The translations under genes and the position numbers were made by a program. The notes under the pieces are model-generated. The model was not told where the DNA came from. It saw only the letters and a program-made list of their open reading frames with translations, and did not search any database. Source: Bacteroidales bacterium (GTDB taxonomy: Bacteria; Bacteroidota; Bacteroidia; Bacteroidales; WCHB1-69). From it: DNA of 42,143 nt. Of the stretch, positions 428 through 39,206 are shown piece after piece. Within the stretch, counting starts at the first letter, position 1. Each line of letters starts with the position of its first letter. The stretch is from the NCBI GenBank assembly GCA_016290715.1, contig JAEEUY010000194.1:1-42143 (forward strand). The letters run 5' to 3'.

Positions 428-500
428 AGCGGAAAACGAGACTCGAACTCGCGACCCTAACCTTGGCAAGGTTATGCTCTACCAACTGAGCTACTTCCGC
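428..500 (-). tRNA. tRNA-Gly (anticodon GCC), copy 1; no encoded CCA
   Basis: The reverse complement GCGGAAGTAGCTCAGTTGGTAGAGCATAACCTTGCCAAGGTTAGGGTCGCGAGTTCGAGTCTCGTTTTCCGCT folds as a 73-nt cloverleaf. Elements: 7-bp acceptor, D-arm GCTC/GAGC, anticodon stem TAACC/GGTTA with loop TTGCCAA, and T-arm GCGAG-TTCGAGT-CTCGT. Confidence 0.93.
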
Positions 501-510
501 GAAAGTTTTG

Positions 511-583
511 AGCGGAAAACGAGACTCGAACTCGCGACCCTAACCTTGGCAAGGTTATGCTCTACCAACTGAGCTACTTCCGC
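511..583 (-). tRNA. tRNA-Gly (anticodon GCC), copy 2, identical to copy 1
   Basis: Same 73-nt sequence as 428..500 by direct comparison. It forms part of a 78-nt perfect direct repeat (423..500 and 506..583). Confidence 0.93.
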
Positions 584-601
584 TTAATTTACCTTAGTTC
601 G

Positions 602-686
602 TACCTCGGGCGGGACTTGAACCCGCACGATCGCAATGATCACGGGATTTTAAGTCCCGCGTGTCTACCAATTCCACCACCAAGGC
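602..686 (-). tRNA. tRNA-Leu (anticodon TAA), long variable arm; no encoded CCA
   Basis: The reverse complement is GCCTTGGTGGTGGAATTGGTAGACACGCGGGACTTAAAATCCCGTGATCATTGCGATCGTGCGGGTTCAAGTCCCGCCCGAGGTA. Elements: anticodon stem CGGGA/TCCCG with loop CTTAAAA, a 16-nt variable arm, and T-arm GCGGG-TTCAAGT-CCCGC. The acceptor stem has G1-U72 and U5-G68 wobble pairs. Confidence 0.88.
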
Positions 687-16180: not shown

Positions 16181-17527
16181 ATGGATTTTCATATTCGCAA
16201 AGGAGTTGACATACGATTGGCTGGGACCGCAAAAGAAGAAATACAAAATTTTGCTTCTTCCCGATTCTTAATCTGTCCTACTGATTTTCGATGGTTGAAA
16301 CCACGGTTGCTCATTGCGCCAGGTTCATCCGTAAACGTAGGCACCCCCCTCTTCTGCTCCAAAGAGGACGAGCGAATAGTTATCGTTTCCCCTGTCCAAG
16401 GCGAGGTTATGGAAGTTATTCGTGGTAACCATCGTGCCATTGAAGCAATCGTTATCCAAGCCGATTCCTCCCCAATCACTTTTGCCAACGTATCTTTCCC
16501 TGAACCCACAAATTCTTCTGAAATAGCTGAATTATTGATTTCCAACGGGTTATGGCCTTTTTTACGCCAACGCCCGTTTGCTACAATTCCCACTCCTGAC
16601 ACCCGTCCCAAAGCCCTTTTTGTTTCCTGCTTTGATTCCGCCCCGTTGGCCCCCAATTTTGGCATTTTATTAAAAGGAAAAGAAGAGTATTTTCATGAAG
16701 GGATCCGTCGCTTGCACCAATTGGTTGGAAAGGATTGTCCTGTACACCTTTGTTTACCGAAAGGAAGGAGCAATCAACTCTTTGAATCAGTAGAAGAGGT
16801 AAAATTGCACTATTTTGACGGGCCACATCCTGCGGGCAATGTTGGCACGCAAATTCATCGCATCGCCCCGATTGACAAAGGGGAAACCATTTGGTTTATC
16901 CATCCCCAAGATGTAGCAACCATCGGCAGATTTTTTCTAACGCATGAACTATCATTTGAAAAAAGGATCGCCCTCACAGGTCCTTGTGCCGAAAATCCCT
17001 GTTACTACACTTTCCCCTATGGCACCGACCTATCCGCCTTGCTAAACTGTGAGACAACAAATGCGCAAGTGCGCAAAATTAGTGGAAATGTGCTAACAGG
17101 TAATCAATTAACAAAGTATAACACACTGCGTTTTTACGATACCCAACTAACGTTACTACCTGAAGGTGGCGAGCGAAAATTGTTAGGCTGGTTGCTACCT
17201 AATTTCAAAAAATGGAGCCTTTCACACACTTTTTTGTCGTGGCTGTTCCAGCATCATATCTTTGCACATAACACCTCCTTACAAGGCGGTCGGCGCAATT
17301 TTGTCATGACCGATGTTTATGAAAAAGTATTTCCCTTTGAAATTCTCCCTTTACAATTAATGAAAGCCTGCTTGACCGAAGACATTGAACAGATGGAAGA
17401 GTTAGGAATTTATGAAGTGGACGATGAGGATTTTGCGTTGTGCGAAGTGGTTTGTCCTTCTAAAATGGAATGTCAAAAAATTATCCGCGAGGGACTTTAT
17501 AAAATTAAAATGGAAAATCAAGCATGA
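16181..17527 (+). CDS. nqrA: Na+-translocating NADH:quinone oxidoreductase subunit A
   Basis: 448 aa. It is the first gene of a six-gene set with the canonical nqrABCDEF order and sizes. The N-terminus IRKGVDIRLAGTA is typical of NqrA. Confidence 0.9.
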   Translation: MDFHIRKGVDIRLAGTAKEEIQNFASSRFLICPTDFRWLKPRLLIAPGSSVNVGTPLFCSKEDERIVIVSPVQGEVMEVIRGNHRAIEAIVIQADSSPITFANVSFPEPTNSSEIAELLISNGLWPFLRQRPFATIPTPDTRPKALFVSCFDSAPLAPNFGILLKGKEEYFHEGIRRLHQLVGKDCPVHLCLPKGRSNQLFESVEEVKLHYFDGPHPAGNVGTQIHRIAPIDKGETIWFIHPQDVATIGRFFLTHELSFEKRIALTGPCAENPCYYTFPYGTDLSALLNCETTNAQVRKISGNVLTGNQLTKYNTLRFYDTQLTLLPEGGERKLLGWLLPNFKKWSLSHTFLSWLFQHHIFAHNTSLQGGRRNFVMTDVYEKVFPFEILPLQLMKACLTEDIEQMEELGIYEVDDEDFALCEVVCPSKMECQKIIREGLYKIKMENQA

Positions 17528-18666
17528 ATATTCTAACCCAACTCAGCGATAAAATCAGCCATCATTTTGAAAAAGGGAAACCCTTGTACTGCTTTTATGC
17601 GCTTTATGATGCCATAGACACTTTTTTGCTCACACCCAGCGAGGTAACGAGCGGCGGAAGCCACATTCGAGATGCCGTGGATATGAAGCGCATTATGATT
17701 ACCGTGATGATTGCTTTATGCCCTGCATTGTTTTTTGGCATGTGGAACATTGGGGTGCAACATTTTCTTTCTTTAGGCGAAAATGCTACATTTTGGCGTT
17801 GTTTTGGCTATGGTTTTTTGAAATGGCTTCCTTTGGTGATGGTTACCTATTTCAGTGGACTGACGATAGAGGTCATTTTTGCCCAACATCGTGGTCATCA
17901 GGTAGCGGAAGGATTTTTTGTTACAGGTTTTCTCATCCCGATGATTATGCCGCCAGATGTGCCATTATGGATTGTTGCCATAGCGACGGCGTTTTCGGTA
18001 TTATTTGCAAAAGAGGTATTTGGCGGCACTGGATACAACTTCCTCAATCCGGCATTAATAGCACGGGCTTTCGTATTTTTTGCCTACCCGTCGGTTATTT
18101 CGGGCGATGCAGTATGGATTTCCGAGTCTGCTGATGCTGTTTCCGGAGCCACTCCACTGGCACTGGTAATGAATGATGCTACTGCACAGATGCCCTCTTT
18201 CCTTGATATGTTTATCGGCACCATCCCTGGATGTATCGGAGAAACATCAAAAATTTGCATCATAATAGGTGCTATTCTATTGTTATACACCCAAGTAGCG
18301 AGCTGGCGCATTATGTTATCGGTAGTGGTGGGCGGATGGATTACAGGCACACTTTTCCATGCCGCAGGGATGTGTCCCATTACAGGATGGCAACATCTGT
18401 TGATGGGCGGATTTTTATTCGGTGCTGTCTTCATGGCCACCGACCCCGTAACAGCCACGCATACCCAAGCAGGAAAATGGATCTACGGACTCCTCATCGG
18501 CATCCTCGCAATCGTCATTCGCGTTATCAACAAAGGCTATCCCGAAGGAATGATGCTTGCCATTCTACTTATGAATATCTTTGCCCCTCTCATTGACTAT
18601 TGTATTGTAAAAATTAAAATCAGAAAAAGGAAAATTAATATTTCCAAACATAAAATTTTACTCTAA
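17524..18666 (+). CDS. nqrB: Na+-NQR subunit B
   Basis: 380 aa, polytopic. The FMN-attachment motif SGATPL is present (DAVSGATPLAL). The start overlaps the nqrA stop (ATGA). Confidence 0.9.
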   Translation: MNILTQLSDKISHHFEKGKPLYCFYALYDAIDTFLLTPSEVTSGGSHIRDAVDMKRIMITVMIALCPALFFGMWNIGVQHFLSLGENATFWRCFGYGFLKWLPLVMVTYFSGLTIEVIFAQHRGHQVAEGFFVTGFLIPMIMPPDVPLWIVAIATAFSVLFAKEVFGGTGYNFLNPALIARAFVFFAYPSVISGDAVWISESADAVSGATPLALVMNDATAQMPSFLDMFIGTIPGCIGETSKICIIIGAILLLYTQVASWRIMLSVVVGGWITGTLFHAAGMCPITGWQHLLMGGFLFGAVFMATDPVTATHTQAGKWIYGLLIGILAIVIRVINKGYPEGMMLAILLMNIFAPLIDYCIVKIKIRKRKINISKHKILL

Positions 18667-18676
18667 CCTCTCTTGA

Positions 18677-19276
18677 ATGATGAAAAATTTCAGCACACCA
18701 TATATATATTTCTATCTCATTGTTTTGGTAACAGTGATAGCCATTGGACTTACGGCTGTAAGTTTAGGGCTGAAGCCACGGAGAGAGTTCAACCAGCGGG
18801 TAGAAAAGGCGCAACAGATTCTGTGTGCAGCTGGCTACGGCGATGTTTCAAAAGAGATGGCTGTAGCAAAATTCGATGCGGTTGTCCAAACCATCGATAA
18901 TCAATCTAAAGCGTGCTACCAGATTCATTGTGCGGATGGAACGGACGGACACGTAGTGGAGGTTCACGGCAACGGACTTTGGGGCCCTATTTGGGGGTAT
19001 ATCATTCTGGAAGAAGACCTTAACACCATCAAAGGGGTTGTTTTCGCCCATAAATCAGAAACTCCCGGTTTAGGTGATAAAATCACCGAAGAGGCCTTTA
19101 CAGCCCAATTTATTGGGAAAAAACTCCACAATGCACAAGGCGAATACACATCGGTACGCGTACTCCCGAAAGGAAAGAATCCCTCCATTGCACCAGAAAA
19201 TCGTGTGGATGCCATTACAGGTGCCACCCTTACTTCCAAGGGGGTAGATGCCATGATAATGCAAAGTTTTAAATAA
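18677..19276 (+). CDS. nqrC: Na+-NQR subunit C
   Basis: 199 aa with one N-terminal TM helix. The FMN-attachment motif is present in DAITGATLTSKG. Confidence 0.88.
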   Translation: MMKNFSTPYIYFYLIVLVTVIAIGLTAVSLGLKPRREFNQRVEKAQQILCAAGYGDVSKEMAVAKFDAVVQTIDNQSKACYQIHCADGTDGHVVEVHGNGLWGPIWGYIILEEDLNTIKGVVFAHKSETPGLGDKITEEAFTAQFIGKKLHNAQGEYTSVRVLPKGKNPSIAPENRVDAITGATLTSKGVDAMIMQSFK

Positions 19277-19313
19277 AAAATATAAGAAAATCAGCAACTT
19301 ATAAAAACTAAAA

Positions 19314-19913
19314 ATGAAAAAATACCTCGGACCGCTTAACAAAGAAAATCCCATTTTAGTGCAGACTTTAGGGGTATGTTCTGCTTTAGCGGTTACTGCC
19401 CAATTAAAACCCGCCGTCGTCATGGCCCTATCCGTTACTGTAGTCTGCGCCATGGCCAATCTCATCATTTCACTATTACGCAACACCATCCCTCCACGCA
19501 TCCGAATCATTGTACAACTATTAGTGGTATCCACCCTCGTCATCATGGTTGATCAGGTGCTCCAAGCCGTTGTTTACGATATTAGTCGCCTGCTCTCTGT
19601 TTTTGTCGGCCTCATCATCACCAACTGCATCATTATGGGACGGTTAGAGGCATTCGCTCTCTCCCATAAACCACTCCCTTCCTTTGTTGACGGCGTGATG
19701 AATGGATTAGGCTATGGATTAGTGTTAGTGGCTATTGCCTTTTTCCGGGAATTTTTAGGGTCGGGCACATTATGGAATTACCCCATCATACCCGCTTCTT
19801 TTTATGAAGCAGGGTACTTGAACAATGGTTTAATGATTCTCCCTCCCATGGCACTCATCTTGGCAGGGGTTTTCGTGTGGATTCAGAACGCTAAAAAAGA
19901 TCGTGTAAAATGA
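19314..19913 (+). CDS. nqrD: Na+-NQR subunit D
   Basis: 199 aa, six-TM RnfE/NqrD-type sequence (NPILVQTLGVCSALAVT, IITNCIIMGRLEAFA). Confidence 0.9.
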   Translation: MKKYLGPLNKENPILVQTLGVCSALAVTAQLKPAVVMALSVTVVCAMANLIISLLRNTIPPRIRIIVQLLVVSTLVIMVDQVLQAVVYDISRLLSVFVGLIITNCIIMGRLEAFALSHKPLPSFVDGVMNGLGYGLVLVAIAFFREFLGSGTLWNYPIIPASFYEAGYLNNGLMILPPMALILAGVFVWIQNAKKDRVK

Positions 19914-20521
19914 GAGAATTGATTGATATTTTTGTTCGCTCGGTCTTCATCGACAATATGATTTTTGCCTATTTTTTAGGCATGTGTTCCTATTTGGCAG
20001 TCTCAAAAAATGTAAAAACGGCCTTCGGATTAGGTTTGGCCGTTTGCTTTGTTTTAGCCGTCACTGTTCCTGTCAACTATCTTATTGATAAATATTTATT
20101 GCAAAGAGGTGCTTTAATATGGATTCATAAAACATTCAGTGAAGTGGATTTATCGTATCTATCGCTTATCATTTTCATTGCCGTGATTGCCGGAATGGTA
20201 CAATTGTTGGAAATGGTTATTGAAAAAATATCCCCTGTACTTTACCAATCATTGGGGATTTTTTTGCCCTTGATTGCGGTTAATTGTGCTATTTTGGGGG
20301 CATCGCTCTTCATGCAAGAGCGGCATTTTCCCAGTGTAGCCCATAGTTTCAGCTACGCCATCGGTTCGGGAGCAGGTTGGCTGCTGGCGATCGTCGCTTT
20401 TGCTGCCATTCGCGAGCGATTAAAATATTCGGATATTCCGAAACCGCTACAAGGCAACGGGATAGCCTACATTATCACAGGATTGTTAGGACTTGGTTTT
20501 ATGGCTTTTTTAGGAATCTAA
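19910..20521 (+). CDS. nqrE: Na+-NQR subunit E
   Basis: 203 aa, RnfA/NqrE-type (FLGMCSYLAVS, IAVNCAILGASLF). The start overlaps the nqrD stop (ATGA). Confidence 0.9.
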   Translation: MRELIDIFVRSVFIDNMIFAYFLGMCSYLAVSKNVKTAFGLGLAVCFVLAVTVPVNYLIDKYLLQRGALIWIHKTFSEVDLSYLSLIIFIAVIAGMVQLLEMVIEKISPVLYQSLGIFLPLIAVNCAILGASLFMQERHFPSVAHSFSYAIGSGAGWLLAIVAFAAIRERLKYSDIPKPLQGNGIAYIITGLLGLGFMAFLGI

Positions 20522-20532
20522 AATTTAAATAG

Positions 20533-21774
20533 ATGATATTGATTACTGCCTTATCTGCACTCGTCATTTTCTTAGTGGTTATCATTATTTTGGTAGCTGT
20601 TTTGTTATATGCACGCAAAAAGTTGGTCCCTGAGGGGAAAGTGAAAATCACCATTAACGGGGAACGTGAGATTGAGCACGAACGGGGATGTACGCTGCTA
20701 CAAGCACTTTCTGACGAAAAAGTCTTTGTTCCCTCTGCGTGTGGTGGCGGTGGCAGTTGCGGAACCTGTCGCGGGAAAGTGCTCTCGGGCGGCGGCACCA
20801 TTCTGCCCACCGAATTGAGCCATATATCCCGAAAAATGGCGGCAGACAATTACCGGCTCTTCTGTCAGGTAAAAGTGCGTGAAGACATGGAAATTGAAAT
20901 ACCCAAGGAGTTCTTTGGCATCAAGAAATGGCGTTGTCGTGTAGTATCCAACCACAATGTAGCCACTTTCATCAAAGAATTGGTACTCCAACTGCCAGAA
21001 GGAGAACGGATAGACTTCCGTTCCGGCGGATATATACAAATTGATATTCCCGCCTGTAAAGTGGATTTTGCGAATATGGAGATAGAAGAACCTTACCGAC
21101 AAGACTGGGAACAGATGGGCATTTTCAACTTGCAGATGAAAAACAGCGTTCCTACCGTACGGGCTTACTCTATGGCCAATCATCCTGCAGAAGACAGCAT
21201 CGTGATGCTGAACGTCCGTATTGCCACCCCGCCTTTCAATCGTTCCAAAAACAGATGGAGTAACATCAATCCGGGTATTGCTTCTTCTTACATTTATAAC
21301 CTTCGTCCGGGAGATGAAGTGATGGTTTCCGGACCTTATGGCGACTTTTTCGTAAAAGACACCAATCGCGAAATGATGTTTATCGGCGGAGGCGCTGGAA
21401 TGGCCCCCATGCGTTCCCATATCTTCCATCTGTTCAAAAATTTACATACAAAAAGAAAAACCACCTTCTGGTATGGTGGACGATCACGAAAAGAACTTTT
21501 CTACGTGGAAGAATTCCGAAATATTGAACACGAAAACGACAATTTTTCCTTCCATATCGCTCTTTCCGACCCGCAACCCGATGACCATTGGAACGGCTAT
21601 ACCGGTTTCATCCACCAAGTGATTTTCGACAACTATCTTCAATCTCATCCCAATCCGGAAGATATTGAATATTACATTTGCGGTCCCCCACTCATGTTGC
21701 AAGCAGTGCTGAAAATGCTTGATTCGTTAGGTGTGGAACCCGACATGATACATTATGATGATTTTGGCGGCTGA
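20533..21774 (+). CDS. nqrF: Na+-NQR subunit F (TM anchor + 2Fe-2S ferredoxin + FAD/NADH domain)
   Basis: 413 aa. It has an N-terminal TM helix, the 2Fe-2S motif SACGGGGSCGTCRGKV...C, RAYSMAN (the RxYS FAD motif) and GGGAGMAPMRSH (NAD binding). Confidence 0.92.
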   Translation: MILITALSALVIFLVVIIILVAVLLYARKKLVPEGKVKITINGEREIEHERGCTLLQALSDEKVFVPSACGGGGSCGTCRGKVLSGGGTILPTELSHISRKMAADNYRLFCQVKVREDMEIEIPKEFFGIKKWRCRVVSNHNVATFIKELVLQLPEGERIDFRSGGYIQIDIPACKVDFANMEIEEPYRQDWEQMGIFNLQMKNSVPTVRAYSMANHPAEDSIVMLNVRIATPPFNRSKNRWSNINPGIASSYIYNLRPGDEVMVSGPYGDFFVKDTNREMMFIGGGAGMAPMRSHIFHLFKNLHTKRKTTFWYGGRSRKELFYVEEFRNIEHENDNFSFHIALSDPQPDDHWNGYTGFIHQVIFDNYLQSHPNPEDIEYYICGPPLMLQAVLKMLDSLGVEPDMIHYDDFGG

Positions 21775-25103: not shown

Positions 25104-25198
25104 TTTCATAAATTCTAGAATTTTTAACAAAAAAAATTTACAAGGTCTGAAATAAAAAGATTGTGAAATACAAAATCATCCAAATTATGATTAACAGT

Positions 25199-26329
25199 AT
25201 GAAAAAATGTTTTCTAACCCTAATGTCAACCTTAATGGTGGTGTTCGGTTTTGCACAAGGAAGTGCAGAAATGGGAGGCTTTGTTCCATCCTCTGCAACC
25301 ACTAACAACATCTCAGCTTCCGTAGGACAGACGTTCTACCAGCTGGCACCCGCCAATGCCCCCATCAGTCTGGTTACCGAAGGCCTGCAACAGGCCACTT
25401 TCGTAGAAAGCAATGATACATTGCTGTTGTACGCAAGCGAGATGGGCAACTACTCCGCCGGCAACAACGAAGTGGAAAGTACAACCATTGAAGGCTACGA
25501 TGAACTGATCCATCGCCAAGTGTATGAACTCACCTGCCCCGACGACTACGAATACACAATGGAAGTCTCCGGCGTTTTAACACACAATGTTACGCTGGAC
25601 GAGCCAACGGTAAACCCCAACGACGGAAAAGTGCAGCTGACTTTAGACCGCGAAAATCCTTTCGCCTACCCTGTGGGGGAAACCACCACTGCCACTTGGA
25701 CGGCCTCTGTGGCCGGACAACAGAAAAGTTGCGATGTGGCGGTTATCATCAACAACTTCAACTGTGCATCCGTATCACCTGCCATTGACTACGAAGGGCA
25801 TGAATACCCTGTAGTGGGATTGGGCAACTTCTGCTGGATGGCAAAGAACCTGCGCGCAGAACTCTATAGCGACGGCACCGCCATCCCCAATGTGATGACC
25901 TTGCCAAGCGAACTCTTTCCCGGCATCAACATAGTGGAAGACCTCGGACATCTTTATACTTGGGACGCTGCCACCAACTACAACACCGCTCAGGGGCAGG
26001 GTGCTTGCCCCGATGGTTGGCACATCCCTACCGAAGAGGAAATGAACTATGTGATGACCCAATACGAACCCACTTCGTTGATGACCGAAGACTACTGGGT
26101 ACCCACGGGCGGAACCGATGACTACGGCTTCTCCGTACTCCCCGGCGGCTACTACAACGCCGTTACCGGAAAATACGAAAGAACTCTCATCAACTCCTAC
26201 TTCTGGACCGTAAAAGAAGCCGGCTTGGTCGCCATCTCCTGTATGTTCGGCGAAGCTTGCAGCACCATGGTGATGGGGCCCGAATTAAAAGAAAACGGCT
26301 TCAGCGTGAGATGCGTGCTGAATTATTAG
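25199..26329 (+). CDS. Secreted protein with C-terminal FISUMP domain (Fibrobacter succinogenes major paralogous domain, TIGR02145-like)
   Basis: I prefer the start at MKKCFLTLMSTLMVVFGFAQG because it gives a signal peptide; the track's GTG 25163 adds 12 aa. Domain landmarks are FCWMAKNLRA, CPDGWHIPTEEEM, GFSVLPGGY, YFWT and GFSVRCV. Confidence 0.75.
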   Translation: MKKCFLTLMSTLMVVFGFAQGSAEMGGFVPSSATTNNISASVGQTFYQLAPANAPISLVTEGLQQATFVESNDTLLLYASEMGNYSAGNNEVESTTIEGYDELIHRQVYELTCPDDYEYTMEVSGVLTHNVTLDEPTVNPNDGKVQLTLDRENPFAYPVGETTTATWTASVAGQQKSCDVAVIINNFNCASVSPAIDYEGHEYPVVGLGNFCWMAKNLRAELYSDGTAIPNVMTLPSELFPGINIVEDLGHLYTWDAATNYNTAQGQGACPDGWHIPTEEEMNYVMTQYEPTSLMTEDYWVPTGGTDDYGFSVLPGGYYNAVTGKYERTLINSYFWTVKEAGLVAISCMFGEACSTMVMGPELKENGFSVRCVLNY

Positions 26330-26384
26330 GGGATGAAGGGATGAAGAGATTAAGAGATTACAAATATAAATTAAACCAAACAAA

Positions 26385-27902
26385 ATGAAAAAATTACTGA
26401 CTTTTTTAATCGTAATGATTTTCGGATTGGTGTGTCTGTTAGCGCAAAACCCGACATTGAGTTACCAGTCTGTAGTTAGAGACGAGAACAACCGTCTTGT
26501 ACAAAACACCAGCATCAACCTCACAGTGCAGATTTTTGAGGGAGACGTGCAGAAGTATCAGGAAACCAGAACCGTTACCACCAACCAAAACGGGGTGGTT
26601 AGCTTCGCCATTGGCGATGCCAACCGTCTGACCAATGAAGAAGAGTTAACCAATATAGTTAGCTGGAACGGGGCAACCATCAAGGTTACCTACCATCTGA
26701 CCTCTGGCGACATGGTGGTGGACAACCCTGTAACGGCAGTGCCCTTCGCACTACAAGCAGCAAACTCACTGGCAGAAGAAACCGACCCTGTGTTCACCAC
26801 GTGGGATAAGGATTATAACGATTTAATCAACACCCCTGAAATTCCTACGGTTAACAACGCCACGCTGACCATCAAGCAAGGGGAAAACACCTTGGGAACC
26901 TTTACCGCCAACGCTAATGAAGCAGTGAATGTATCCATTCCCGAACCTGCCGCTCAAGTACAAGCCGACTGGAATGCAACAGAAGGCGTTGCTGCCATTG
27001 CCAACAAACCATCATTGGATGACTATGCCACTAAAGCAGGAAACAATACATTTTCTGGAACGAACACATTCAGCAGTACAATTACAGTACCACAGGCTGT
27101 AAATCAAAATACTCTTGCCTATACCAACGACGAAATGCAGGCAGTAACTTACAAAGATTTGATTTTCTTATATGACAGCATACTTCGTCGCTACAACAAT
27201 ATTGTTGACAGCCTTAAAGATAGAATAAGTACATTAGAAGAGGAAGTTTTTCCTCCTTTCACATGTGGTGCCACAATTAGAGATAATGAAAACAATGTGT
27301 ATAACACCGTGAAAATTGGTACACAATGCTGGATGAAAGAGAACTTACGTACCACCCAAACACCCGATGGTACAGAAATTGAACACGAGGAGGCTTTCTA
27401 TTCTCAAACATTGGATATGGCCTATTACTATCCGGGGGACGAGGCAGATAGTGTGGAGATTTATGGTCTGCTTTACAATTACGTCGCAGCTACAAATAAT
27501 TACGCTTCTGGTAATCGCGGCATTTGTCCTGAAGGATGGCATCTTCCAACCGATGAAGAATGGGCAACTCTTAATGCATACGTATCAAACCTTACTGCTG
27601 CAGGTCCAGTACCTATGATGCAAGCCCCTAGAGGATGGGATTATTATGCAGAATGGGGGCCTTCTAATGAGACTGGTTTTTCTGCTGTACCTGCTGGCGG
27701 AACTAACAGTATAGATCCCATGGAAGAGACTCCTGAGTGGTTTGGCTTTGGAAAGTGGGCTATGTTTCATAGTAGTGATGACGAGGGGGACGAGTCCACT
27801 GAGGTAAAACTACTTTATCATGATAGGTTGGACATCTATACAGAAACGATTGGTAAATATCATGGTGCTTCTATCCGTTGCATACATAATGAGGAGTGGT
27901 AG
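26385..27902 (+). CDS. Secreted fibre-like protein: N-terminal beta domain, tail-fibre-like motifs, coiled-coil neck, C-terminal FISUMP domain
   Basis: 505 aa with a signal peptide ending LLAQN. The N-terminal module is SYQSVVRDENNRLVQN...TNQNGVVSFAIGD. ADWNATEGVAAIANKP is a tail-fibre-like motif. A heptad segment YDSILRRYNNIVDSLKDRISTLEEE follows, then QCWMKENLR, CPEGWHLPTDEEW, GFSAVPAG and SIRCI. Confidence 0.75.
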   Translation: MKKLLTFLIVMIFGLVCLLAQNPTLSYQSVVRDENNRLVQNTSINLTVQIFEGDVQKYQETRTVTTNQNGVVSFAIGDANRLTNEEELTNIVSWNGATIKVTYHLTSGDMVVDNPVTAVPFALQAANSLAEETDPVFTTWDKDYNDLINTPEIPTVNNATLTIKQGENTLGTFTANANEAVNVSIPEPAAQVQADWNATEGVAAIANKPSLDDYATKAGNNTFSGTNTFSSTITVPQAVNQNTLAYTNDEMQAVTYKDLIFLYDSILRRYNNIVDSLKDRISTLEEEVFPPFTCGATIRDNENNVYNTVKIGTQCWMKENLRTTQTPDGTEIEHEEAFYSQTLDMAYYYPGDEADSVEIYGLLYNYVAATNNYASGNRGICPEGWHLPTDEEWATLNAYVSNLTAAGPVPMMQAPRGWDYYAEWGPSNETGFSAVPAGGTNSIDPMEETPEWFGFGKWAMFHSSDDEGDESTEVKLLYHDRLDIYTETIGKYHGASIRCIHNEEW

Positions 27903-34339: not shown

Positions 34340-34347
34340 TATCTTTG
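34340..34347 (+). promoter_or_regulatory. Bacteroidota-type -7 box for the Hdr-like operon
   Basis: TATCTTTG lies 22 nt upstream of ATG 34369. It is back-to-back with the nadA box in a 141-bp divergent intergenic region. Confidence 0.5.
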
Positions 34348-34368
34348 CAGTTATAATACTAATGCGTT

Positions 34369-34971
34369 ATGGGAAATTTATTTGATTTATTATCAGAAGA
34401 TTCTCGTTTCAACGATGCGTTGAAAGCGTGTATGAATTGTGGTATTTGCACGGCAATTTGTCCCGCAGCGGAATTTTATGATTACGATCCCCGTAAGATT
34501 TGTGATACCATACAACGGAAAGATGAAAATGCCATTGAAGCCCTTCTTCGTTCGGATATGATATGGGCATGTGGACAGTGTTTGTCTTGTAAGACCCGCT
34601 GTCCGCGAGGCAATGTCCCCGGAGAAATCATTCTAATCCTCAGAAAATATGCCCAAATACAAGGTTATTGCGGCGATTTTGTCCGCCAGCAACAACACCA
34701 ATTGGCAGAAACTGTAGGAAAAAACATATTGGAAATCGGCTATTGCGTGCATCCTGATAGGGTGTCGCCTGCAAAGCATCCTGAACAAGGTCCTATATGG
34801 GAATGGTATGTACAAAATATTGAACAAGTTGCTCCAAAATTGGGTGCCAATTACCATGGGGAAGGGCCGGGAGCTCTCCGTAAAATCAGAGAAGAGAATT
34901 TGGAAGAAATCCGTAAAATTTACGAGTGTACAGGGGGACAAAAACTGATGGACAAACTATTAAACGAGTAA
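34369..34971 (+). CDS. HdrC-like 4Fe-4S dicluster protein (200 aa)
   Basis: CMNCGICTAICP ... DPRKI ... IWACGQCLSCKTRCPRGNVP shows two CxxCxxCxxxCP motifs, with the spacing and intervening helix pattern of heterodisulfide reductase subunit C. Confidence 0.75.
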   Translation: MGNLFDLLSEDSRFNDALKACMNCGICTAICPAAEFYDYDPRKICDTIQRKDENAIEALLRSDMIWACGQCLSCKTRCPRGNVPGEIILILRKYAQIQGYCGDFVRQQQHQLAETVGKNILEIGYCVHPDRVSPAKHPEQGPIWEWYVQNIEQVAPKLGANYHGEGPGALRKIREENLEEIRKIYECTGGQKLMDKLLNE

Positions 34972-34977
34972 GACAAT

Positions 34978-35310
34978 ATGGCAGTAAACTTTGGTTATTC
35001 AATCTCAACGACACGCGTAATTAACTTTGATAATTGCGACTTTAATTTACTACACCAATTAGAAGAAATCGTTCCTTCCTATAAACGTTGTTTGAATTGC
35101 GGTGCTTGTACGGCAACGTGCAGCGCACAACAATTCACCAAATTTAATATTCGGAAAATCAAATCCCTATTCACTTCTGCCCAATATGATAAACTGGCTA
35201 AAGAGTTAGACAAGTGTATGTTATGCGGCAAATGTACTTTGGTGTGCCCTCGAGGCATCAATCTGCGCCCTGCTATCATGAATATGAGAAAAATATTGTC
35301 TAACAAGTAA
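34978..35310 (+). CDS. Second, short HdrC-like 4Fe-4S dicluster protein (110 aa)
   Basis: It contains CLNCGACTATCS and CMLCGKCTLVCPRGINL. It starts 6 nt after the previous gene. Confidence 0.7.
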   Translation: MAVNFGYSISTTRVINFDNCDFNLLHQLEEIVPSYKRCLNCGACTATCSAQQFTKFNIRKIKSLFTSAQYDKLAKELDKCMLCGKCTLVCPRGINLRPAIMNMRKILSNK

Positions 35311-35327
35311 TCTAAAATCCAACTACC

Positions 35328-37103
35328 ATGCAGAACCTGTTTCACCCATTTGTATTACCTTTTGTTTTAGGGACAATTATTCTATTTGCCATCTGCATCT
35401 GGAAATTCATACGATGGTTCCGTCATTTTGACAGATTACAACGCGCCATTCTCAGAAAAAATATCTTCTCTTGGAAAATCATCCCTGCCTTGTGGGAGGC
35501 CTTTCGCGAAGGATTATTACACATACGTATTTCACGTCAAAATCTCATTCTCGGATACATGCACCGCAGTATCGCCTTCGGGTGGTTTTTGCTCATTGTA
35601 GTAGGCTTTTTTGAAGCACACCTCACCCCTCTCAACTCACACCCTGTTTGGTTAGCGATTTTTTACCGCTTCTTTATCCATGAACATCACTTGTTCGCCT
35701 CCTCTGAAGTTTTCACTTTCATTATGGACCTGCTGCTACTCTATGTTTTATCAGGGATTTTCATTGCATTCTGCAAAAAAATCTACTCAAAAGCAGTAGG
35801 CATGAAAAAAACGACCAAGCATGTGCTTTTTGACCATTTTGCCAAGGTGTCTTTATGGGCCATTTTCCCTTTGCGACTTTTATCAGAATCGTTGGCCGCA
35901 AACGTATATCAAAACGGAGGATTTTTAACACAAAGTATAGGGAATTTCTTCAGTCCATGGTTCGCAGAAACATTTCTAACAACCTCGTGGACAATGTATT
36001 CCATTGCATTAGGCACCTTCTTTGTAGCACTTCCATTCTCAAGATACATGCACATTTTCACAGAAATCATCTTGATTTATTTCCGTCAAATGGGTGTGCA
36101 CGAACATTTGGAAAGAACAGGTTATACGATGTACGAACTGAATGCATGCTCCCGTTGCGGAATCTGCATTGATAACTGTCCTCTAAACAAAGACTTAAAC
36201 ATCACCAATGTTCAACCCGTGTACTTTTTAAGGGACCTTCGATACAAAAGAGGCACTGATGCCGTAGCTGACAACTGCCTGCTGTGTGGTCGTTGCGATG
36301 CCGCATGCCCCGTTAACATTGACCTTTTGGCTATTCGGCAACAAGAAAGAAACAAGCGGGAACAAGATCATTGCGACTACTCATATTTAAATAATATTCA
36401 ACCATTTAACGCTATCGGTCGCGTTGGTTTCTTCGGTGGTTGTATGTCACACCTCACCCCCGGCATTACCGAATCCATGAAAGCCATTTTTGAAGAAGTT
36501 GAACAAAAATACTGGTTCTTAGATGAAGAACGAACTATCTGCTGTGGAAGACCATTAATGCAACAGGGGTATTTGGAACAAGCTGCTGAGTTGCGCCGAA
36601 AAAACAGTGAACTGATCAAAAAATCAAAAATTTCGGTTCTCATCACCTCCTGCCCCATCTGCTACCAATCATTCAAGAATGAGTACAAGCTCTCCATTCC
36701 CATCATGCACCATACTGAATATATCATGAAGTTGCTGGAAACAGGGAAACTCAAACTTCGTAAAGATGACTTGCGGACCGTTTATCACGACCCTTGTGAA
36801 TTAGGAAGAGGCTGTGGCATTTATAAAGAACCCCGCCAAATTCTCAAAAAAGCCACTCATTTGGTAAAAGCCAAACATGAAAAAGAAGAAAGCATCTGCT
36901 GCGGTATCAATTTGGGAGACACATTGATTGACATTCGCCAACAAACCCAAATCCGTGATGCGGCAATGAATAATCTGATGTATAAAAATCCCGATCAAAT
37001 TTGTACGGCTTGCCCGATGTGCAAACGTGCTTTCAACCATGCGACAGATTTTCCGGTAAAGGATATTGCAGAGATTGTTAGGGAAAATATGATCAAAAAA
37101 TAA
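35328..37103 (+). CDS. Fusion protein: NarI/DsrM/HdrE-like membrane b-type cytochrome domain + DsrK/HdrD-like domain (two 4Fe-4S motifs + two CCG domains)
   Basis: 591 aa. The first ~260 aa have about 5 TM helices with His pairs at opposite helix ends (GYMHRS...FFEAH; SRYMHIF...GVHEH). Then come CSRCGICIDNCP and CLLCGRCDAACP. CCG domain 1 is GGCMSH...TICCGRP...TSCPICY and CCG domain 2 is HDPCELGRG...SICCGIN...TACPMC. Confidence 0.75.
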   Translation: MQNLFHPFVLPFVLGTIILFAICIWKFIRWFRHFDRLQRAILRKNIFSWKIIPALWEAFREGLLHIRISRQNLILGYMHRSIAFGWFLLIVVGFFEAHLTPLNSHPVWLAIFYRFFIHEHHLFASSEVFTFIMDLLLLYVLSGIFIAFCKKIYSKAVGMKKTTKHVLFDHFAKVSLWAIFPLRLLSESLAANVYQNGGFLTQSIGNFFSPWFAETFLTTSWTMYSIALGTFFVALPFSRYMHIFTEIILIYFRQMGVHEHLERTGYTMYELNACSRCGICIDNCPLNKDLNITNVQPVYFLRDLRYKRGTDAVADNCLLCGRCDAACPVNIDLLAIRQQERNKREQDHCDYSYLNNIQPFNAIGRVGFFGGCMSHLTPGITESMKAIFEEVEQKYWFLDEERTICCGRPLMQQGYLEQAAELRRKNSELIKKSKISVLITSCPICYQSFKNEYKLSIPIMHHTEYIMKLLETGKLKLRKDDLRTVYHDPCELGRGCGIYKEPRQILKKATHLVKAKHEKEESICCGINLGDTLIDIRQQTQIRDAAMNNLMYKNPDQICTACPMCKRAFNHATDFPVKDIAEIVRENMIKK

Positions 37104-37115
37104 ATATTTACGGTT

Positions 37116-38171
37116 ATGACGAAAAGATATTGGAATGAGTATCAAAAGGAAATAGCTGACGACCATTACTTCTACGAAAGAAGTTGCATCCGTCAAACCT
37201 TTTTTCCCGGTTCTGAAACGGCATTTTTGAAAATCATGCGTGACGAACTGCACAAAGATATCTATGATGAAGAGAACCAACATACCTGTACAGGCATCGG
37301 CTATCATAGCGATATTGTTCCTTTGGAGACCACCATGACTGTTGTGGCACGCCTGTTTTCTTTGATGAACGCAGCGGGTTATACCAACTACGTGCCTTCT
37401 TGCGTTACCTCTTTCGGTATTTTTACCGAGATGGTGGAAATATGGAAACATAACCCCGCCATGCTCGAAAAAACCCGTGAATATTTGAGAAAAGCCACTG
37501 GAAGGGAATTTGAACCTCCAGCGAATTTGGTGCATCCTTCTGATATTATCTATAAATTCCGGATGGAATTGAAAGAAAAGATGAAATATCAGTTGGTTAA
37601 CAGATTTACAGGAAAACCCTTGCGCGCTGTGGAACATGTAGGCTGCCACTATGCCAAAATCTTTCCCGAAAAGGGAATCGGCAAATCAGAATTCCCTCAC
37701 GTATTAGTAGGGATGATTGAAGCATGGGGCGGTGAAGTAATCGACTACCCTGAACGCCGTCATTGCTGCGGCTTCGGATTCCGCCACTATTTGCTCCAAG
37801 AAAATCGCGGATATTCGGTTGCCAATTCCAAAAAGAAATTTGAATCCATGGAACCCTACGAACCCGATTTTATCCTCACCAACTGTCCGGGATGTGCCAT
37901 GTTTATGGATAAATGGCAATACACCATTGCCGAAATGGAAAACAAAACCTACGACAAAGAAGGATATGGAATCCCCGTACTCACCTACGAAGAACTGACT
38001 GGACTCCTCCTCGGCTACGACCCTTGGAAATTAGGGCTCCAATTACATCAGGTGCAATCTGAAAACTTACTCAATAAAATAGGAATCAAGTATAATCCTG
38101 ACGAAAAATATCGTGGTGCCGACGGTCAAATACTGCCGATTCCTAACAGACCCAAATTTTTGAAACAATAA
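37116..38171 (+). CDS. HdrB-like protein with one degenerate and one intact CCG domain
   Basis: 351 aa. The N-terminal domain reads RSCIRQTF...HTCTGIG...PSCVTSF, with CCG changed to CTG and CxxC changed to CxxS. The C-terminal domain VGCHYAK...RRHCCGFG...TNCPGCAMF keeps the full C-CCG-CxxC pattern. Confidence 0.7.
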   Translation: MTKRYWNEYQKEIADDHYFYERSCIRQTFFPGSETAFLKIMRDELHKDIYDEENQHTCTGIGYHSDIVPLETTMTVVARLFSLMNAAGYTNYVPSCVTSFGIFTEMVEIWKHNPAMLEKTREYLRKATGREFEPPANLVHPSDIIYKFRMELKEKMKYQLVNRFTGKPLRAVEHVGCHYAKIFPEKGIGKSEFPHVLVGMIEAWGGEVIDYPERRHCCGFGFRHYLLQENRGYSVANSKKKFESMEPYEPDFILTNCPGCAMFMDKWQYTIAEMENKTYDKEGYGIPVLTYEELTGLLLGYDPWKLGLQLHQVQSENLLNKIGIKYNPDEKYRGADGQILPIPNRPKFLKQ

Positions 38172-38186
38172 TATAAAACCTTGAAT

Positions 38187-39206
38187 ATGAAAAAAATAGC
38201 AGTTATCGGAGCAGGACCTGCAGGAATTGAAGCCTCCTATATTTTAGCTTCAAATAATTTTGAAGTAACTCTATTTGAAAAATCCTCCTCCCCTTTATCC
38301 AACATTTTGGATAAGGCATACCTATTTCCTGATTTTTCTTCTGCTACAGAGTTGGCTGATAAGTTAAGTGCCAAGTTATTGCAGAAAAATATTCAAGTGG
38401 TTTTGGATAAAGAGATAGTAGATATAAAAAAAGATGGGGATATCTATAAATTAATTGACAAAGAAGAGAAATCACATATAGCCGATGCTGTGCTTATTGC
38501 CACCGGGTACACCATCTTTGATGCCCATCGTAAAGAGGAATACGGTTATGGTATTTACAAAGGGGTCGTCACCTCATTGGATTTGGAAAAAATGATCCGC
38601 CACAAACAGATATTCAACTCCATTGGAGATATTCCTTCACGAATTACTTTCTTACAATGTGTGGGATCCCGTGATGAGAAATCGGGGAATAACTACTGCT
38701 CAAAAGTATGTTGTGTTACCGCCGTGAAACAAGCGATTGAAGTTCGTAAAGCATTGCCCGATGCTGAAATATACATTTTTTATATGGATTTGAGAATGTG
38801 GGGGCAAGGGTTTGAGGAACTCTACCGTGAAGCACAGGAAAAATACGACATCCGTTTTGTCCGTGGCCGTATTTCAGAAGCCTCTGCCACCTTTGACGGG
38901 AAAGTACAAATCAAATCAGAGGACACATTAATTGGCCAACCTCTTAAAATGAACACTGATTTATTGGTTCTGATGGCGGGAATGGAGCCTTCACAGGGGA
39001 CCAAAACCATTGGTAAAAACTGCCATATTGGAGGAGAATACCAGTTTATTTCCTCTCAGGGAGCACACATACAAGATAATTTAACCACTATGGAAGGCAT
39101 TTACGTAGCTGGCACAGCCAAACGTCCCATGAGCATCCGCGACACCCTGACCGATGCCGATTCCGCTGCCGTACAAATCATGATGGATCTAGGAGAGAAA
39201 TTATAG
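38187..39206 (+). CDS. Minimal HdrA-like FAD flavoprotein with one 4Fe-4S site (340 aa)
   Basis: I prefer ATG 38187 (MKKIAVIGAGPAGIEAS, a GxGxxG motif) over the track's TTG 38181. LQCVGSRDEKSGNNYCSKVCCVTAVKQA matches the HdrA/QmoA cluster-binding signature. The C-terminus has the GIYVAGTA...D FAD motif. It has no ferredoxin-domain CxxCxxCxxxCP motifs. Confidence 0.72.
   Translation: MKKIAVIGAGPAGIEASYILASNNFEVTLFEKSSSPLSNILDKAYLFPDFSSATELADKLSAKLLQKNIQVVLDKEIVDIKKDGDIYKLIDKEEKSHIADAVLIATGYTIFDAHRKEEYGYGIYKGVVTSLDLEKMIRHKQIFNSIGDIPSRITFLQCVGSRDEKSGNNYCSKVCCVTAVKQAIEVRKALPDAEIYIFYMDLRMWGQGFEELYREAQEKYDIRFVRGRISEASATFDGKVQIKSEDTLIGQPLKMNTDLLVLMAGMEPSQGTKTIGKNCHIGGEYQFISSQGAHIQDNLTTMEGIYVAGTAKRPMSIRDTLTDADSAAVQIMMDLGEKL

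Follow-up and report, generated by a model that had tools for sequence, protein, structure and literature searches.

A conserved five-gene operon of Bacteroidales for a membrane-anchored Hdr-like complex, related to sHdr and joined to sulfonolipid genes in part of its lineages

The operon and its five products

The window analyzed in this study is a 42,143-nt stretch, contig JAEEUY010000194.1 (GCA_016290715.1), of an uncultured gut/rumen Bacteroidales metagenome-assembled genome (MAG); near-identical contigs are found in several metagenomes and in GCA_017444265.1. It carries, on the + strand and spanning 34369-39206, five tightly packed genes whose products, P1 to P5, are related to heterodisulfide reductase (Hdr) subunits, with gaps of 6, 17, 12, and 9 nt (P1/P2, P2/P3, P3/P4, and P4/P5) (Table 1). 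An earlier note, drawn from the letters alone, had read these co-directional open reading frames as a single operon for a membrane-anchored Hdr-like complex; all five lie where it had placed them, and the conservation described below supports that reading. Altogether, the operon joins a core that by sequence resembles part of the sHdr systems to a ferredoxin and a membrane protein, and in about half of the complete related loci it is fused to genes for sulfonolipid synthesis.

Table 1. Features of the operon, followed by other features of the window
Feature	Position	Strand	Content or basis
Bacteroidetes-type -7 box TATCTTTG, candidate promoter	34340-34347	+	Read directly; 21 nt 5' of the first ATG
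P1, HdrC/sHdrC1-like, 200 aa	34369-34971	+	Fer4_8; 2x[4Fe-4S] on C21,24,27,31 and C68,71,74,78
P2, 2x[4Fe-4S] ferredoxin, 110 aa	34978-35310	+	Pfam; conserved motifs
P3 gene, 591 aa	35328-37103	+	Open reading frame
P3 N-terminal membrane domain	35328-36092	+	Five predicted transmembrane helices; invariant His79 and His242, putative heme b ligands
P3 2x[4Fe-4S] ferredoxin domain	36135-36320	+	Fer4_8/Fer4_17; C274,277,280,284 and C317,320,323,327; 8/8 Cys invariant
P3 two canonical CCG domains	36423-37037	+	PF02754, two stretches; C372..C405C406..C442xxC445 and C490..C524C525..C562xxC565
P4, HdrB-like with sHdrB1-type N-terminal half, 351 aa	37116-38171	+	Pfam, NCBIfam, conservation, neighbor-joining tree
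P5, short HdrA-like flavoprotein	38181-39206	+	FAD-binding GAGPAG; one [4Fe-4S] on C160, C173, C177, C178
nqrABCDEF, complete	16181-21774	+	6/6 subunits above NCBIfam cut-offs
Surface protein, 1638 aa	28379-33295	+	DUF7948, PKD, SprB, and CHU_C domains (type IX secretion/gliding-type)
Two adjoining Fib_succ_major genes	25163-27902	+	Fibrobacter succinogenes major domain
Three tandem tRNA genes	428-686	-	First two score identically

The cluster cysteines of P1 to P5 are invariant across 56 to 78 homologues, which bears out the motifs singled out by the earlier note in P1, P2, P3, and P5. P1 and P2 each have two CxxCxxCxxxC(P/S) motifs with 8 Cys apiece, and P1 also has a conserved C126 and H137. 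The Pfam search recovered Fer4_8 in P1 and, in P3, Fer4_8/Fer4_17 together with PF02754 twice. P4 had been called HdrB-like, and this stands for its C-terminal half, where the canonical noncubane-cluster motif (C177, C217, C218, C257, and C260) aligns one to one with the ligands of solved HdrB. The N-terminal CCG site, however, is degenerate, with T57 replacing the first Cys of CC and S99 the second ("bridging") Cys of CxxC, and retains C24, C58, and C96 plus the conserved H56/H64. P5 aligns from end to end with the crystal structure of Hyphomicrobium denitrificans sHdrA (6tjr; residues 3-338 against 1-340; E 1e-49). It measures 341 aa from a TTG at 38181 and 339 aa from an ATG at 38187, the likely start, which gene callers use on the identical contigs.

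A curated NCBIfam cut-off is reached by 0/5 of the proteins. The scores, in bits over cut-off, are 87/350 for HdrC, 142/450 for HdrB, 238/1100 for HdrA2, 112/385 for TfrB, 66/400 for DsrK, 76/278 for GlpC, 44/300 for QmoC, 85/800 for LdhH, 39/333 for GlcF, and 20/445 for the LutB type, and across the HdrA models P5 scores 188-238 bits against cut-offs of 1100-1400. At present the families of P1 to P5 are annotated just as "(Fe-S)-binding protein" or "heterodisulfide reductase subunit B."

P3 combines the membrane and catalytic-type domains in one chain. Five transmembrane (TM) helices are predicted (residues 7-31, 73-98, 125-157, 166-194, and 210-237), in agreement with the approximately five counted in the earlier note. 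Four His are conserved (H65, H79, H165, and H242), among which H79 and H242 are strictly invariant, and the CCG of both CCG domains is invariant in 78 sequences. The NarI-type family listed for checking in the earlier note (Nitrate_red_gam, PF02665) gave no Pfam hit with the TM domain, and the TM domain alone retrieved nothing from PDB by sequence at E <= 10. Beyond generic ferredoxin-domain matches, the sole PDB match of P3 by sequence is Mycobacterium smegmatis EtfD (E 2e-9, second CCG domain). Foldseek with the AlphaFold2 model of P3 also placed EtfD at the top (PDB 9ojn, full length, E 3.6e-15), ahead of LutA and HdrB; the model is mediocre (pLDDT 70.5, pTM 0.45, ferredoxin domain <40), and its top matches were used but not its geometry.

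The published EtfD, whose fold superimposes on HdrDE, combines five TM helices with one heme b (ligands His78/His241), a menaquinone site that lies 4-5 Å away from this heme, two CCG domains, and two cubane clusters (PMC13083937). Its first CCG domain has Thr for Cys and a linear 3Fe-4S cluster and the other a His-capped noncubane cluster, and they are described as non-catalytic (PMC13083937). P3 has the same domain order, with a His/His site at near-identical residue numbers; TM2 and TM5 carry His79 and His242 at what are predicted to be their cytoplasmic ends, where the EtfD ligands also lie, and the two residues are putatively equivalent to those ligands on grounds of position, invariance, and fold. 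By analogy, P3 probably has a single heme b site, and a heme near the cytoplasmic face would make its quinone reaction non-electrogenic. Unlike in EtfD, the CC and CxxC of both P3 CCG domains are canonical and complete, as in HdrD/HdrB, and P3 has neither an electron transfer flavoprotein (ETF) partner nor a long disordered C terminus. HdrED of Methanosarcina and DsrMK/HmeCD of sulfate reducers follow a common plan with P3, in which a membrane b-type cytochrome and a cytoplasmic 2x[4Fe-4S]/CCG protein join a quinone-type pool to S-S chemistry. In those systems, however, the two parts are separate subunits and the anchor is a NarI-type di-heme protein, and the operon is without dsrC, dsrAB, or methanogenesis genes. 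P3 is thus best described as a single-chain HdrED/EtfD-type menaquinone-interacting module. With a build like that of the menaquinone reductase EtfD, P3 plausibly connects the complex to the quinone pool; this much of the menaquinone coupling put forward in the earlier note stands, whereas the coupling itself and the substrate are what we infer.

Relationship to sHdr and methanogen Hdr

The sHdr reference locus (dsrE3-shdrC1B1AHC2B2-lbpA-tusA; L087, where L numbers denote retrieved loci) was obtained via the 6tjr sequence. The best matches of sHdrC1, sHdrB1, and sHdrA are P1, P4, and P5, at 99, 108, and 171 bits, respectively. P1 is 34% identical to sHdrC1 over 145 aa and scores 40 bits with sHdrC2, while P4 scores 60 bits with sHdrB2 and 96 bits with methanogen HdrB. 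P4 and sHdrB1 have in common [T/S]-C-T...Y-H for CC, C-x-T-S-F-G for CxxC, and CCGFGFRH, whereas sHdrB2 and methanogen HdrB keep canonical motifs at those sites. In a neighbor-joining tree of 33 HdrB-family sequences, the P4 clade of Bacteroidales and Altiarchaeales is sister to, and not inside, the sHdrB1 clade (bootstrap 91/100 for the joint clade and 100/100 for each clade). The C-B-A gene order, as in sHdr C1-B1-A, is found in ~25 related loci and is permuted in the window to C-Fd-M-B-A (Fd, ferredoxin P2; M, membrane protein P3). Judged from these alignments, the C-B-A core is specifically of the sHdrC1-B1-A type.

In the second half of the operon the similarity is weaker. P2 resembles the ferredoxin core of sHdrC2 weakly (40-54 bits), the best sHdrC2 matches in the loci falling on P2, and the soluble part of P3 gave no blastp hit with sHdrB2. 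Type I sHdr systems (shdrC1B1AHC2B2 plus LbpA; H. denitrificans and Aquifex aeolicus) share with the operon the C1-B1-A core, in the same order in half of the related loci, and a short ~340-aa HdrA with FAD and one [4Fe-4S], and both add a second ferredoxin and a second two-CCG protein after the core. They differ in having sHdrH, LbpA, lipoate-assembly, TusA, and DsrE3 genes, which the operon is without, whereas the operon's second CCG protein carries a membrane domain of five helices in the same chain and shows no specific similarity to sHdrB2; moreover, the hosts of the operon are strict anaerobes and the identity to sHdr proteins is 27-34%. For type II clusters (shdrC1B1AHB3-etfAB-emo), electrons have been proposed to reach menaquinone via EMO (PMC11094781). 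The proposal shared with these is a membrane Fe-S/CCG protein delivering to menaquinone, P3 being likened to EMO by literature description (EMO is grouped functionally with EtfD) and not by sequence; the operon lacks etfAB, sHdrH, and sHdrB3, and its small ferredoxin would couple directly to the membrane protein. As for methanogenic HdrABC, the B and C subunits and the core of A are homologous (E 1e-26, 6e-12, and 1e-58 to solved structures), but HdrA has ~650 aa (solved chains, 643-671 aa) against 341 aa for P5, of which only residues ~100-336 align strongly. The N-terminal noncubane site of P4 is degenerate with respect to HdrB, and the operon adds a membrane module and has no hydrogenase or formate dehydrogenase partners.

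The published search criteria for shdr clusters require shdrH (PMC11094781), and these criteria exclude the operon from the sHdr systems proper and leave it as a relative whose second half differs. The building blocks are all known, and what seems new is their combination, an sHdr-type core without sHdrH/LbpA together with a small ferredoxin and a single-chain five-TM P3. This combination matches neither of the two described types of sHdr gene cluster (PMC11094781), so that the claim of an arrangement unlike known systems holds for the whole and not for the core.

Distribution and sulfonolipid neighborhood

The neighborhoods of the best 80 P3 relatives were fetched, their open reading frames called and clustered, and the window proteins used as tblastn queries. 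P3 relatives occur in at least 591 species-representative genomes, and the best 80 come nearly all from Bacteroidales/Bacteroidia MAGs of rumen, gut, digesters, and sediments, with Prevotellaceae/Bacteroidaceae, Tannerella, Paludibacteraceae, Lentimicrobiaceae, Marinilabiliales, and Alistipes among the carriers. All five genes stand together in most of the 80 loci, as well as in Altiarchaeales (below), so that the co-conservation expected of a single operon is found. They follow one of two orders, P1-P2-P3-P4-P5 (C-Fd-M-B-A, as in the window) or P1-P4-P5-P2-P3 (C-B-A-Fd-M), and P2 lies directly 5' of P3 in every fetched locus where tblastn detected P2. Partial sets also exist, namely, P2-P3 alone in 16 loci and P1-P2-P3 in some genomes. 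P2-P3 is the stable core, and the C-B-A part is facultative. Several of the lone P2-P3 pairs sit amid housekeeping genes (L033, L035-L037, L045, L055, L068, and L078).

The most conserved subunit is P4 (63-87% identity). An exhaustive search of 1.84 billion representatives with P4 returned 737 relatives, 54 of them at E <= 1e-30, and the nearest outside Bacteroidota belong to "Candidatus Altiarchaeales." The whole module is present in Ca. Altiarchaeales archaeon WOR_SM1_SCG (GCA_001723845.1, L150:4393-12958), at 36-43% identity over the full length and with the two TM His kept, in the order C - small FeMo-co-family protein - B - A - Fd - Fd - M. That locus also holds a second HdrC-HdrB-like pair, the 123-aa Nitro_FeMo-Co protein between C and B, and a 65-aa extra ferredoxin, and two nitrogenase-like Oxidored_nitro genes converge downstream. 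In gut metagenomes, single Alistipes-type protein clusters count >1,700 members. Four Alistipes/Rikenellaceae-type gut contigs (L146-L149) have the order C-B-A-Fd-M, with one HdrB-like sequence recurring in 204 collection blocks; there the operon is flanked by thyA/folA and a DpnII-type restriction-modification system on one side and an unannotated, possibly prophage, block on the other. In one Bacteroidales MAG, group II intron RNA domains (RF01999 and RF00029; L067:1067-1638) lie just 5' of the operon, and a typical Bacteroidaceae-type operon in a MAG labeled Clostridia (L042, JAZOOY010000052.1) probably stems from misbinning and not from transfer.

The sulfonolipids made by gut Bacteroidales (Alistipes and Odoribacter) have immunological activity, and links to diet and inflammatory bowel disease are on record; their first committed steps (cysteate synthase, SulA/CFAT, and ketoreductase) have been elucidated recently. 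Across the 80 loci, the recurrent neighbors of the operon are a VOC-fold protein (41 loci), an SDR (27 loci), an alpha-oxoamine synthase (25 loci), and a pyridoxal phosphate (PLP) enzyme of the threonine-synthase family bearing a zinc ribbon at its N terminus (25 loci). We identify the alpha-oxoamine synthase as a genuine SulA/CapB cysteate acyltransferase, with E 1.6e-189 to the A. finegoldii SulA structure (PDB 7u7h) and 1e-172 to "cysteate-C-fatty acyltransferase." Of its 25 members, 24 have the diagnostic Lys by which SulA is told apart from serine palmitoyltransferase (PMC9304779). Its PLP companion, hereafter cysS, is a putative cysteate synthase in view of its family, architecture, and position.

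SulA and/or the putative cysteate synthase is encoded within 8 kb in 24 of the 49 complete loci. The absence of partner genes claimed in the earlier note is therefore true of the window but not of the family. Among loci with P2-P3 only, essentially none has sulA or cysS, the single count probably being a locus truncated by its contig (L084). There are at least four arrangements: sulA-cysS-SDR-VOC-P1..P5, P1-P4-P5-P2-P3-sulA-cysS-SDR-VOC, sulA-cysS-P1-P4-P5-P2-P3-SDR-VOC, and one with an inverted SDR-cysS-sulA block located one gene downstream. The gaps within the joint cluster of L012 are 2-19 nt. In L062, the hdr genes stand between cysS and SDR-VOC and, because P3 and SDR overlap by 4 nt, they sit inside the sulfonolipid operon. 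The commonest operon neighbor is the VOC protein, a 357-aa two-domain glyoxalase fold often encoded 2 nt 5' of P1 (e.g., L010:5844-6920, L013:5991-7061, and L034:5929-7008, plus 38 further loci). None of its His is invariant, no NCBIfam model covers it, and a sequence comparison with PDB gave no relative; it may be an unrecognized sixth component or a substrate-handling partner.

In the window itself, nadA is divergent 5' of the operon, and the 141-nt spacer between them contains TATCTTTG. The earlier note had read the five genes as one operon behind this TAnnTTTG box; the box is present, but with 57 such motifs in the window against 45 expected, a mild enrichment, it is by itself weak evidence for a promoter. 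Scans for sigma-70 promoters and terminators stayed at chance level, and neither the window nor five related loci has an Rfam element or riboswitch 5' of the operon. A glycosyltransferase gene converges on P5 from 28 nt 3' of it. The remaining content is housekeeping (tRNAs, Na+-NQR, PNPase, surface proteins, and nadA), and Apr, Dsr, Etf, hydrogenase, LbpA, and TusA genes as well as glp and lut partner genes are absent from the window. Operation of the complex beside Na+-NQR had been suggested; the nqr genes precede the operon by 12.6 kb of unrelated genes, and no specific link was found beyond a presumably shared quinone pool. A functional tie to either the Na+-NQR genes or nadA was rejected, as neither stays adjacent to the operon in other species. 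Directly 5' of nadA lies the gene for the 1638-aa surface protein. Sulfonolipids are classically tied to gliding motility in Bacteroidota, and a thematic link of this protein to sulfonolipids is possible. The two Fib_succ_major genes are typical of surface lipoproteins of rumen/gut Bacteroidales.

Proposed function and rival explanations

The fusion of the operon to sulfonolipid genes in about half of the complete related loci narrows the likely substrate to sulfur/sulfite chemistry, and sHdr complexes are described as oxidizing protein-bound sulfane sulfur to sulfite (PMC11094781). We propose a model, to which we give slightly less than an even chance, in which the complex oxidizes sulfane sulfur to sulfite, passes the electrons to menaquinone, and thereby feeds the synthesis of cysteate and sulfonolipids in anaerobes. 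The five proteins would form one membrane-bound complex of two modules, P1-P4-P5 as the relative of sHdrC1-B1-A and P2-P3 as the ferredoxin with its EtfD/HdrED-like partner. Thiol-bound sulfane sulfur, derived from sulfide or cysteine, would be handled at the Fe-S sites of P4, and electrons would run from P4 to P1 (two cubanes), P5 (FAD/[4Fe-4S]), P2, P3, and menaquinone. Within P3 their path would include the CCG-bound clusters, the two cubanes, and one heme b close to the cytoplasmic side. Oxidation of sulfane sulfur to sulfite would yield four electrons to the menaquinone pool, which in Bacteroidales would be reoxidized by fumarate reductase. The sulfite would then enter cysteate synthase (O-phosphoserine + sulfite -> cysteate), followed by SulA and sulfonolipid formation, all under anoxic conditions. 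The substrates of cysteate synthase are reportedly O-phosphoserine and sulfite. A phosphoserine origin of cysteate is stated in PMC11211663. The window copy, which has no sulfonolipid neighbors, would do the same job. Somewhat more tentatively, the operon could represent a third architectural type of sHdr-like complex, anaerobic, linked to menaquinone and fumarate, and making biosynthetic sulfite without a lipoate-binding protein or ETF.

The standard potentials are about -116 mV for HSO3-/HS- and -270 mV for S0/HS-, and menaquinone lies at about -74 mV and fumarate/succinate at +33 mV. On these values, the oxidation of sulfide is overall slightly exergonic with menaquinone and clearly exergonic with fumarate as the final acceptor, and it can proceed provided that menaquinol and sulfite are drawn off.

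Several observations weigh against the sulfite-forming model. With menaquinone, the step from S(0) to sulfite (~-39 mV, derived) is slightly endergonic under standard conditions, and the chemistry of sHdr itself is not biochemically established. The C-terminal half of P4 has the canonical CPGC where sHdrB1 has DTGC (D-x-x-C), and the core of P5 is in sequence no closer to sHdrA than to methanogen HdrA. A tblastn search with sHdrH from L087 found no homologue in the window or in L001-L086. LbpA, TusA, and DsrE3 genes are likewise missing from the window and from within 8-10 kb in 86 loci, save for one GcvH-like gene in L009, whereas sHdr systems are reported to be always accompanied by sulfur transferases. 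The PLP neighbor scores 128 bits with TIGR03844 against a cut-off of 325, and its match to the PDB entry "Cysteate synthase" (E 1.7e-12) is weaker than those to threonine synthases. In the reverse test on 58 SulA-centered metagenome loci, most sulA genes stand alone; the sulA-cysS pairs with enough flank carry hdr genes in 3 of 3 cases, and the linkage claim is limited to such pairs and to part of the lineages. Alistipes is a sulfonolipid producer, and yet sulA, cysS, and VOC are absent within 8-10 kb at Alistipes-type loci, as they are at the window and its closest relatives. The species closest to the window (L007, L008, and L011) have P1-P2-P3-P4 with no P5 in cis and a transketolase subunit gene next. 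Finally, Altiarchaeales carry the module and are not known for sulfonolipids. Because LbpA and the sulfur transferases are absent, the module occurs in Altiarchaeales, and the window lineage is without the linked genes, our confidence in the model stays below one half.

The main alternative, which we regard as unlikely, is that the complex works reductively as a disulfide/S-sulfonate reductase, with menaquinol and/or reduced ferredoxin (via P2) driving S-S cleavage at the CCG motifs in P4 and in P3. Conceivable substrates are thiosulfate, S-sulfocysteine, and mixed disulfides, and the cleavage could release sulfite for cysteate synthase. In heterodisulfide reductases, catalysis takes place at canonical CCG sites like the two in P3 and that of the P4 C-terminal half, HdrED, which comes nearest to P3 in architecture, runs reductively, P2-P3 alone in 16 loci looks like a self-sufficient membrane reductase, and linkage to a sulfite-using enzyme is compatible with any sulfite-releasing reaction. 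On the other hand, thiosulfate reduction (about -400 mV) is not drivable by menaquinol, the operon supplies no donor module of low potential, be it a hydrogenase, a formate dehydrogenase, or an NADH-binding subunit, and the sHdrB1-type signature in the N-terminal half of P4 points to oxidative enzymes. Less likely again is a general, possibly flavin-bifurcating, ferredoxin/menaquinone hub built on the HdrA-type flavin, for which the proximity of sulA and cysS would be hitch-hiking. In its favor, bifurcation in methanogenic Hdr is carried out by HdrA-type flavoproteins, the operon has a ferredoxin of its own (P2), and it is widespread also without adjacent sulfonolipid genes and in Altiarchaeales. 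P5, however, is short, without the extra domains of the ~650-aa methanogen HdrA, and has no NAD(P)H-binding motif but a Cys ligand at that position. That the most conserved subunit is the catalytic B-type P4 favors a substrate site over a wire, and at least four arrangements, with genes that overlap or nearly do so, preserve the sulA/cysS linkage.

P2-P3 might also be an EtfD/EMO-type ETF:menaquinone oxidoreductase whose ETF is encoded elsewhere, the HdrC-B-A-like proteins being a separate soluble enzyme. EtfD is the best structural match of P3, and the P2-P3 pair is an invariant core that occurs without C-B-A. We nevertheless consider this improbable, as etfAB is not found in the window or beside the operon in the loci examined, both CCG motifs of P3 are canonical, unlike the non-catalytic ones of EtfD, and the five genes have been inherited together, in two orders, in both bacteria and archaea. 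That the operon is simply a local ortholog of methanogen-type HdrABC, QmoABC plus DsrMK, LutABC, or GlpABC is hardly tenable: the five proteins do match these families at significant E-values, but every NCBIfam score is 3- to 10-fold below the curated cut-off and the window has none of the apr, dsr, glp, or lut partner genes. On score cut-offs and missing partner genes, we accordingly rejected a standard DsrMK+QmoA set, LutABC, GlpABC, and methanogen-type HdrABC, in keeping with the view of the earlier note that none of the systems it compared has this order or fusion pattern.

In the literature that we searched, no work joining "heterodisulfide reductase" and "sulfonolipid" was found; the review of HdrA(BC) modules by Appel et al. 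2021, which possibly lists the cluster type, was outside this scope. The paper on sHdr distribution has no mention of Bacteroid*, a 2026 paper on the evolution of sulfur oxidation mentions Bacteroidota for rDsr alone, and the papers on sulfonolipid enzymes (including PMC11211663 and PMC9304779) do not discuss the source of sulfite for cysteate synthase in anaerobes living on sulfide or cysteine. If oxidation of sulfane sulfur to sulfite is indeed the function, the complex would account for the sulfite that Alistipes and other strictly anaerobic Bacteroidales put into cysteate and sulfonolipids, and sHdr-type enzymes would gain an assimilatory role in anaerobes. It would moreover offer a simpler version of sHdr, without LbpA or ETF, for studies of mechanism, and its occurrence in Altiarchaeales may then indicate that sulfite is made in this way more generally in sulfidic habitats free of oxygen. 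Should this proposal prove wrong, the operon still encodes an uncharacterized five-subunit component of anaerobic electron transport that is common to Bacteroidales and Altiarchaeales.

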